A program made the position numbers and the translations under genes. Of a stretch of DNA of 64,000 nucleotides, positions 61,721 through 62,306 are shown piece by piece (the first letter of the stretch is position 1; each line of letters starts with the position of its first letter). The DNA is from Escherichia coli (lineage in GTDB: Bacteria; Pseudomonadota; Gammaproteobacteria; Enterobacterales; Enterobacteriaceae). Location: the NCBI RefSeq assembly GCF_003334815.1, contig NZ_QOWO01000002.1; one strand, 5' to 3'. Under the pieces are notes generated by a model. That model made no database searches and had not been told where the DNA came from. It saw nothing but the letters and a program-made list of their open reading frames with translations.

Positions 61721-61955
61721 CCTGTATTACTCCATGTATTGCCAAAATCTCTCTCTGTATCTAATTACAGGTAACTGAAAAGAAAGATATTTTTGCACCT
61801 CATAATCCGTTATTAAACGCGGAAGAGAGACGTGAATTGTTGATGATGAGAAGAAGAAATGATGAGCAGAGTGTCCATATAAAATCCTTTTCTCGCCCGA
61901 AAATCCATTCCAATGATGAGGATCTTCAGGAATACGGCATAAATCCCAATGCCTT
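61721..61955 (-). promoter_or_regulatory. pgaA long 5' leader with multiple GGA motifs (CsrA target region)
   Basis: AT-rich leader; the minus-strand transcript carries several GGA motifs (plus-strand tcc at aaaatcctttt, aaaatccattcc, aaatcccaatg) and GGAG near the start codon; recognised from the published pgaA leader. Confidence 0.5.
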
Positions 61956-62306
61956 TTTCAAAATAAATTAGGATTAAAATAATTAAATCAGTAAATTCCG
62001 ATGCATGATTTCGGATTTTTCGAAAGTCCTGATGAAAGGCTGCGCTACGGCACTCACGGATTTAATTGTTATTCCTAATGTATCTATGAATTAATGTTTT
62101 ATAAGGATTTTCTATAACCATTTATAAGTATTTTCAAGCCTGGCTTGTTGCAAACAATGTATAAAGCACTTAGGCAATAATAATTACATTCAGCAACTAT
62201 CATCATCGGTATTGTTTGTGGGCGGAATTTCATATTGACAACAGTACAGTTCTTATATCTATTAATAATAGAAAGGGATCTACAACCTACAGATTGGTGT
62301 AGCTTT

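Follow-up and report, generated by a model that had tools for sequence, protein, structure and literature searches.

The pgaA-dgcT intergenic region and its alleles

Within the window, the 64,000-nucleotide stretch of Escherichia coli DNA analysed here, the divergent start codons of pgaA and dgcT are separated by 586 bp (61721-62306), which gives exact limits to the distance of about 590 bp reported in an earlier note made from the sequence alone. On the minus strand, pgaA (59297..61720, 807 aa), the first gene of pgaABCD, was identified from the list of open reading frames, the NCBIfam equivalog NF007468 (1457 bits) and RefSeq, and begins at an ATG that is the reverse complement of 61718-61720; the PgaB and PgaC families were matched too. 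On the plus strand, dgcT (ycdT; 62307..63665, 452 aa), with a GGDEF domain at 280-443, begins at the ATG 62307-62309, and RefSeq names the two flanking genes as this same divergent pair. No two annotated genes in the window are further apart; the next gaps in size measure 542 and 426 bp, and the MG1655 annotation places no feature in the gap.

All 586 bases of the gap are identical to MG1655 1092290-1092875. The surroundings agree nearly as well, with one mismatch in the final 10.5 kb of the window and 16 in 63 kb (99.97% identity for the whole window); one mismatch is an A versus G at 54304, between efeB and phoH. That the DNA comes from MG1655 itself is ruled out by these 16 mismatches and by the lack of IS1D, which is missing beside gfcA (at about 19976-19984), while IS3D after dgcT is kept; the source is a close relative of that strain. 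Among 5,426 complete E. coli genomes, 4,236 contain matches to the gap, 2,583 of them at least 99% identical, and copies that are 100% identical were found in many E. coli genomes. Seven of the matching places in these complete genomes sit on plasmids. Since the gap is the characterised K-12 sequence, MG1655 being the background of the published work, the leader, the GGAs of its CsrA sites, its hairpin and its Rho-entry tract are all intact, as is the conserved block near the promoter to which NhaR reportedly binds, and the substantial rearrangement or loss of GGA motifs that the earlier note had regarded as fatal to its reading is nowhere seen in these 586 bases. Given the same identity with an experimentally characterised sequence, little remains of the doubt it expressed over which of the features function in this strain.

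Two deep allele families of the pgaA-dgcT locus occur within E. coli. Alleles of the K-12 type, found in about 4,126 genomes, are at least 93% identical in the gap; a second family, which we call the LF4-1 type after one of its strains, is found in about 114 of the 5,426 genomes, and its identity falls to 66-71% in the gap and to about 80-82% in coding sequence. In LF4-1, dgcT is followed by an RtT sRNA and an integrase gene, and together with the divergence this suggests import from another lineage. As a diverged natural allele, the LF4-1 type gives independent evolutionary evidence of where the 586 bp are under constraint, and constraint is expressed below as the fraction of invariant columns in an alignment of 10 alleles from the two families.

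The pgaA promoter and leader

The core promoter and activator block of pgaA (61955..62032, minus strand; -1..-78) has 79% of its columns invariant, and is the only stretch that megablast matched in LF4-1. Of two NhaR sites ascribed to Goller 2006, one reportedly overlaps the pgaA -35 and the second lies just upstream. Inside the block we found a box resembling the NhaR consensus, TCGAAAAATCCGA (62011-62023, minus strand; -57..-69), which shares 10 of 13 positions with the consensus proposed in PMC6307784 and contains T-N11-A, a level of agreement reached 13 times in the 64-kb window; the same consensus match gave no clear second NhaR box at the pgaA promoter. As stated in PMC7652899, NhaR binds upstream of, and activates, a single pgaA promoter. 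A consensus promoter scan returned one promoter-like site, antisense to the pgaA promoter and at chance level (1 versus 2.9 expected). When an invariant 27-mer of the promoter block was sought by exact match in one genome per species, only an E. coli representative and a contaminated contig were retrieved. The latter, NZ_JUET01000049.1, is a 382-bp contig filed under Tannerella forsythia ATCC 43037; it matches window 61676-62057, which holds the pgaA start and leader, at 99.7% identity and is almost certainly E. coli contamination of that assembly.

By the published account, transcription from this block depends on the LysR-type activator NhaR acting at a weak sigma-70 promoter, which fires at about 61954 to yield a 234-nt leader. 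The resulting 5' untranslated region (61721..61954, minus strand) is positioned here by the published length (PMC4052769), which sets +1 at 61954 with an uncertainty of about 1 nt. With this assignment, the left arm of the published hairpin, at 61-81, ends exactly on the second GGA; a comparison with the mapped K-12 leader and its CsrA sites, as the earlier note had advised, finds an identical sequence in which the published left and right arms fall exactly on the GGA pair and on the C-rich tract.

According to PMC4052769, a discontinuous hairpin spans +61..+107, its arm 61-81 holding the two 5'-proximal CsrA sites and its right arm 82-107 constituting the 5' half of a rut site, which lies within a C>G "bubble" at +50..+130; binding of CsrA opens the hairpin and leads to Rho-dependent termination. 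In the window, this hairpin-like anti-terminator occupies 61848..61894 on the minus strand. Its left arm (61874-61894, minus strand) contains AAGGA at 61885-61889 (+66..+70) and AUGGA at 61874-61878 (+77..+81), which together fill the published arm exactly, and its right arm (61848-61873, minus strand) is the 5' half of rut, the Rho utilisation region as a whole corresponding to 61825..61905 on the same strand. ViennaRNA recovered the fold both alone and as part of the full leader, with an energy of -6.4 kcal/mol; it is weak, a point its authors emphasise, and thermodynamically undistinctive (z = -0.5). Over +61..+158, measured in 78-nt windows, C amounts to 0.27-0.28 and G to 0.12-0.13, so that C is twice G. 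What is expected of such an attenuator is therefore present, namely a weak hairpin in which an arm of CsrA sites pairs with the 5' half of a rut tract rich in C and poor in G. In the published mechanism, CsrA binds GGA-containing sites in the leader, and its occupation of the +66..+81 pair opens the hairpin, exposes the C-rich tract and brings about Rho-dependent termination inside the leader.

Leaders repressed by CsrA are recognised by at least two GGA sites 10-63 nt apart, one of them over the Shine-Dalgarno sequence, the spacing being that given in PMC4052769. The pgaA leader has eight GGAs, including two pairs, +68/+79 and +222/+233, each 11 nt apart, of which +222 lies within the Shine-Dalgarno sequence and +233 overlaps the AUG. 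The GGA over the start codon (CAGGAUG; 61720..61722, minus strand) is the published CsrA site at that position (PMC4052769, PMC7652899), and AUGGA(G) (61731..61735, minus strand; AUGGAG at +220..+225) is both the pgaA Shine-Dalgarno sequence and a published CsrA site; both are invariant in 10 of 10 alleles. Upstream of these, the tract AGAGAGAGA (61748..61756, minus strand; +199..+207), whose AGAGAG is invariant in the alignment, is a probable non-GGA CsrA site, AGAGA being listed as a secondary type of CsrA site in PMC4066749, which has the pgaA paper among its sources. ACGGA (61806..61810, minus strand; +145..+149), a primary type in the same source, is a probable internal CsrA site and reads ACGGG in LF4-1-type alleles. 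Two further elements lie 5' of the upstream-most pair of CsrA sites in the published map: a 5'-terminal stem-loop, GGCAU-UGGGAUUU-AUGCC (61936..61953, minus strand), with the +9 GGA in its loop, which appears in the full-leader fold and retains its stem and GGGA in all alleles; and a tandem GGA at +44 and +49 (UUGGAAUGGA; 61904..61911, minus strand), conserved as UUGGGAUGGA in LF4-1-type alleles. A "terminator-like" hairpin returned by a consensus scan proved to be just the reverse complement of the 5' stem-loop.

The leader had been called GGA-rich in the earlier note, and the count bears this out. In the leader plus ATG (237 nt) the pgaA-sense strand contains 8 GGAs and the opposite strand 3, against a mean of 2.75 per 237-nt window, with only 0.6% of windows reaching 8. 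Enrichment was judged by this local statistic, a search for GGA over the whole window being uninformative. Shuffling gave p values of 0.002 when mononucleotide content was preserved and of 0.09 when dinucleotide content was preserved (shuffle mean 5.5), and the weakness of the latter indicates that part of the enrichment derives from dinucleotide content. It might be argued that GGA richness is a chance product of base or dinucleotide composition and says nothing by itself, 9% of dinucleotide-preserving shuffles reaching the observed number. This is hardly credible, however, in view of the rarity of such windows in the real sequence, the strand asymmetry, the survival of six of the eight motifs in alleles as diverged as the LF4-1 type, and the CsrA binding and regulation shown experimentally on an identical sequence in PMC4052769 and PMC7652899; the published footprints and mutant analyses already refute it.

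The pattern of substitutions within the leader is uneven. The two GGAs that LF4-1-type alleles have lost are those at +79 (now GAA) and +147 (now GGG), which are CsrA-site positions, whereas the GGAs at +9, +44 and +49 are conserved in both families. Invariant columns make up 0.71 of the hairpin left arm, 0.78 of the rut tract and 0.86 of the segment bearing the Shine-Dalgarno sequence and AUG, compared with 0.40 of leader positions +1..+60, the insertion described next included. In LF4-1-type leaders a 22-nt unit, CCCGTAGTCCTTCCCTTTTGGG, is present in one, two or three tandem copies depending on the strain; it aligns at window position ~61930 (+21) and lengthens the 5' untranslated region to as much as 278 nt. 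All alleles keep the central AGGA:UCUU helix of the hairpin unchanged. LF4-1-type alleles have lost the lower stem, and one apical pair has changed in compensatory fashion from C-G to U-A. Overall, 81% of cells are paired in the published register versus 31-75% in slid registers; 178 of 500 shuffles perform equally well, and with only 5 distinct sequences to draw on the covariation is not significant. In view of the GGAs lost and kept, the six-site CsrA map as published may miss part of the constraint acting on this leader.

A different view of this conservation is that the gap hides an additional gene product, either an unannotated small RNA or a 21-codon upstream open reading frame (MDTLLIISSSHHQQFTSLFRV before the stop; 61813..61878, minus strand), translation of which would mask the rut tract. 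The reading frame is intact, of equal length and in frame in 10 of 10 alleles; its AAGGA is a well-spaced Shine-Dalgarno sequence and its AUG lies inside AUGGA, such that its initiation signals coincide with the two proximal CsrA sites in a manner that mirrors pgaA itself, and both substitutions within the K-12-type family are synonymous. Nevertheless, when the 11 observed substitutions were placed at random, 31% of trials left the frame intact, the excess of synonymous changes falls short of significance (p about 0.14), and mutation of its AUG had no effect in PMC4052769. An Rfam scan of 61000-63000 on both strands gave no match at E <= 1, the gap is bare of annotation in MG1655, and the rut tract itself explains both the conservation of this segment and its freedom from indels. 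We therefore consider a hidden product improbable. That the GGAs at +9, +44 and +49, in combination with the upstream frame, could add a further layer of control, perhaps one differing between the allele families, is also of low probability; if true, such a layer might involve protection of the 5' end, loading of CsrA, or masking of the rut tract coupled to translation. These elements would represent at most a low-probability refinement of the known system.

The dgcT side, the spacer and base composition

On the opposite side of the gap, 62230-62266 upstream of dgcT shows 0.73 invariant columns. It includes a putative dgcT promoter (62235..62266, plus strand) consisting of a perfect -35 hexamer, TTGACA (62235-62240), and the 14-mer TTATATCTATTAAT (62253-62266), both invariant in 10 of 10 alleles. 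The best -10 candidate within the 14-mer, TCTATT, is set at a 17-bp spacing and has no A at position 2, and it is owing to this weak -10 that the consensus scan did not call the candidate. We infer that TTGACA and TTATATCTATTAAT form the dgcT promoter, with a predicted start near 62267-62273, from which a leader of about 35-40 nt would be made. The probable leader (62267..62306, plus strand) contains AAAGGGAUC, with a GGA at 62276-62278, and a Shine-Dalgarno sequence, GGUG, at 62296-62299; no allele has lost the GGA, and in the LF4-1 type the Shine-Dalgarno sequence reads GGAG. A hairpin near the dgcT ribosome-binding site was rejected, having a z of -0.2 and, by inspection of the aligned sequences, no conservation in the second family. 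In PMC6028588, PMC4066749 and PMC5389547, which cite Jonas et al. 2008, ycdT/dgcT is a validated direct target of CsrA with a single consensus site. The sole nearby upstream GGA, in AAAGGGAUC about 30 nt before the AUG, is consistent with being that site, and CsrA would then bind the dgcT mRNA directly there.

Between the two promoters lies an AT-rich spacer (62034..62229) in which 40% of columns are invariant. It contains a 15-nt direct repeat, TTTATAAGGATTTTC and TTTATAAGTATTTTC (62098-62112 and 62121-62135, plus strand; 23 bp from start to start), which is only loosely kept in the second allele family. In strain EC09 the spacer is interrupted by IS1A (777 bp including the 9-bp target duplication) at the equivalent of 62076-62084, about 125 bp upstream of the pgaA start site. 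Three other genomes likewise have IS1 transposase genes under the gap match. By the measure of invariant columns, constraint is confined to the promoter and activator block, most GGA sites, the rut tract and the likely dgcT promoter, and the spacer, roughly a third of the gap, appears unconstrained and tolerant of IS1 insertion. It probably serves only for spacing and as a substrate for nucleoid proteins. The proposal that the whole 586 bp acts as a control hub consequently stands in its general sense and may have to be trimmed in extent, the approximately 200 bp of unconserved sequence at 62034-62229 having no need to be regulatory.

The gap is indeed very AT-rich and furnished with A/T tracts, as the earlier note had described. 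Its GC content is 0.340 versus 0.510 for the whole window, only 1.3% of 586-bp windows are equally low, and it holds 18 runs of at least 6 bases composed of A and T only. The lowest-GC 586-bp stretch of the window (0.319) lies elsewhere, at 33361-33946, and comprises the cbpA-yccE intergenic region and the start of yccE. Low GC (0.32-0.38) extends from ~61700 to ~63200, about 900 bp into the dgcT coding sequence; it is this 1.5-kb block, reaching into dgcT, that is AT-rich, and not the control region alone. Such a block is consistent with a foreign origin of the locus, and it can be argued that the length and AT-richness of the gap are mainly the legacy of horizontally acquired low-GC DNA, likely subject to silencing of the H-NS type, in place of a dense array of regulatory sites. 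This view gains from the roughly 1,100 of 5,426 complete E. coli genomes that have neither the gap nor the pgaA 5' end, from a second allele family whose coding identity is far below the usual within-species level, from the integrase gene after dgcT in LF4-1, and from the unconserved spacer that tolerates IS1. In tables of genomic SELEX, an in vitro method, a peak is assigned to the interior of ycdT/dgcT for each of RcdA, SrsR and FlhDC, in two of the tables at coordinate 1,092,430, which by our own conversion between genome versions is about window position 62637; that three unrelated regulators peak within the gene and not in the gap suggests DNA that is AT-rich and generally sticky. Against it stand the constrained islands inside the AT-rich DNA, that is, the promoter block, the GGA sites and the dgcT -35, whose function on the pgaA side has been demonstrated experimentally. 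We would give a predominantly compositional legacy an even chance of being correct; it complements regulation by these islands and does not exclude it.

The control region in relation to known systems

Taken together, the evidence makes it very probable that pgaABCD and dgcT are controlled in both directions from this gap, in the manner published for E. coli K-12. Nothing in the analysis speaks against this for the K-12-type sequence. The role foreseen for it as a hub of CsrA and other regulation of biofilm polysaccharide and c-di-GMP synthesis follows from the identity of the gap to the K-12 region and from the mechanism published there. As a control region it is already known and ordinary in this strain; few post-transcriptional control regions of E. 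coli have been characterised so well, and it counts for little as a discovery. The checks made here are useful mainly as annotation, the published elements now being labelled at exact window coordinates.

Translational repression of pgaABCD by CsrA, together with CsrA-induced Rho-dependent attenuation, is attributed to Wang et al. 2005 and Figueroa-Bossi et al. 2014 (PMC4052769). The K-12 pgaABCD leader of that system is the same base for base, and the control region in the window differs from it nowhere. The NhaR-activated pgaA promoter (Goller et al. 2006, cited in PMC7652899 and PMC6307784) is the same single promoter upstream of the leader. In the case of direct control of ycdT/dgcT by CsrA (Jonas et al. 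2008), the gene and its upstream sequence are again the same, with one GGA (AAAGGGAUC).

Beyond E. coli, the hms locus of Yersinia is the counterpart of pga, probably with a different gene arrangement. In Yersinia pestis (hmsT and hmsHFRS), as described in PMC8406273, CsrA likewise acts on the mRNA of a diguanylate cyclase, hmsT, and on biofilm, but the sign there is opposite, since CsrA enhances c-di-GMP synthesis by relieving the Hfq-dependent repression of hmsT.
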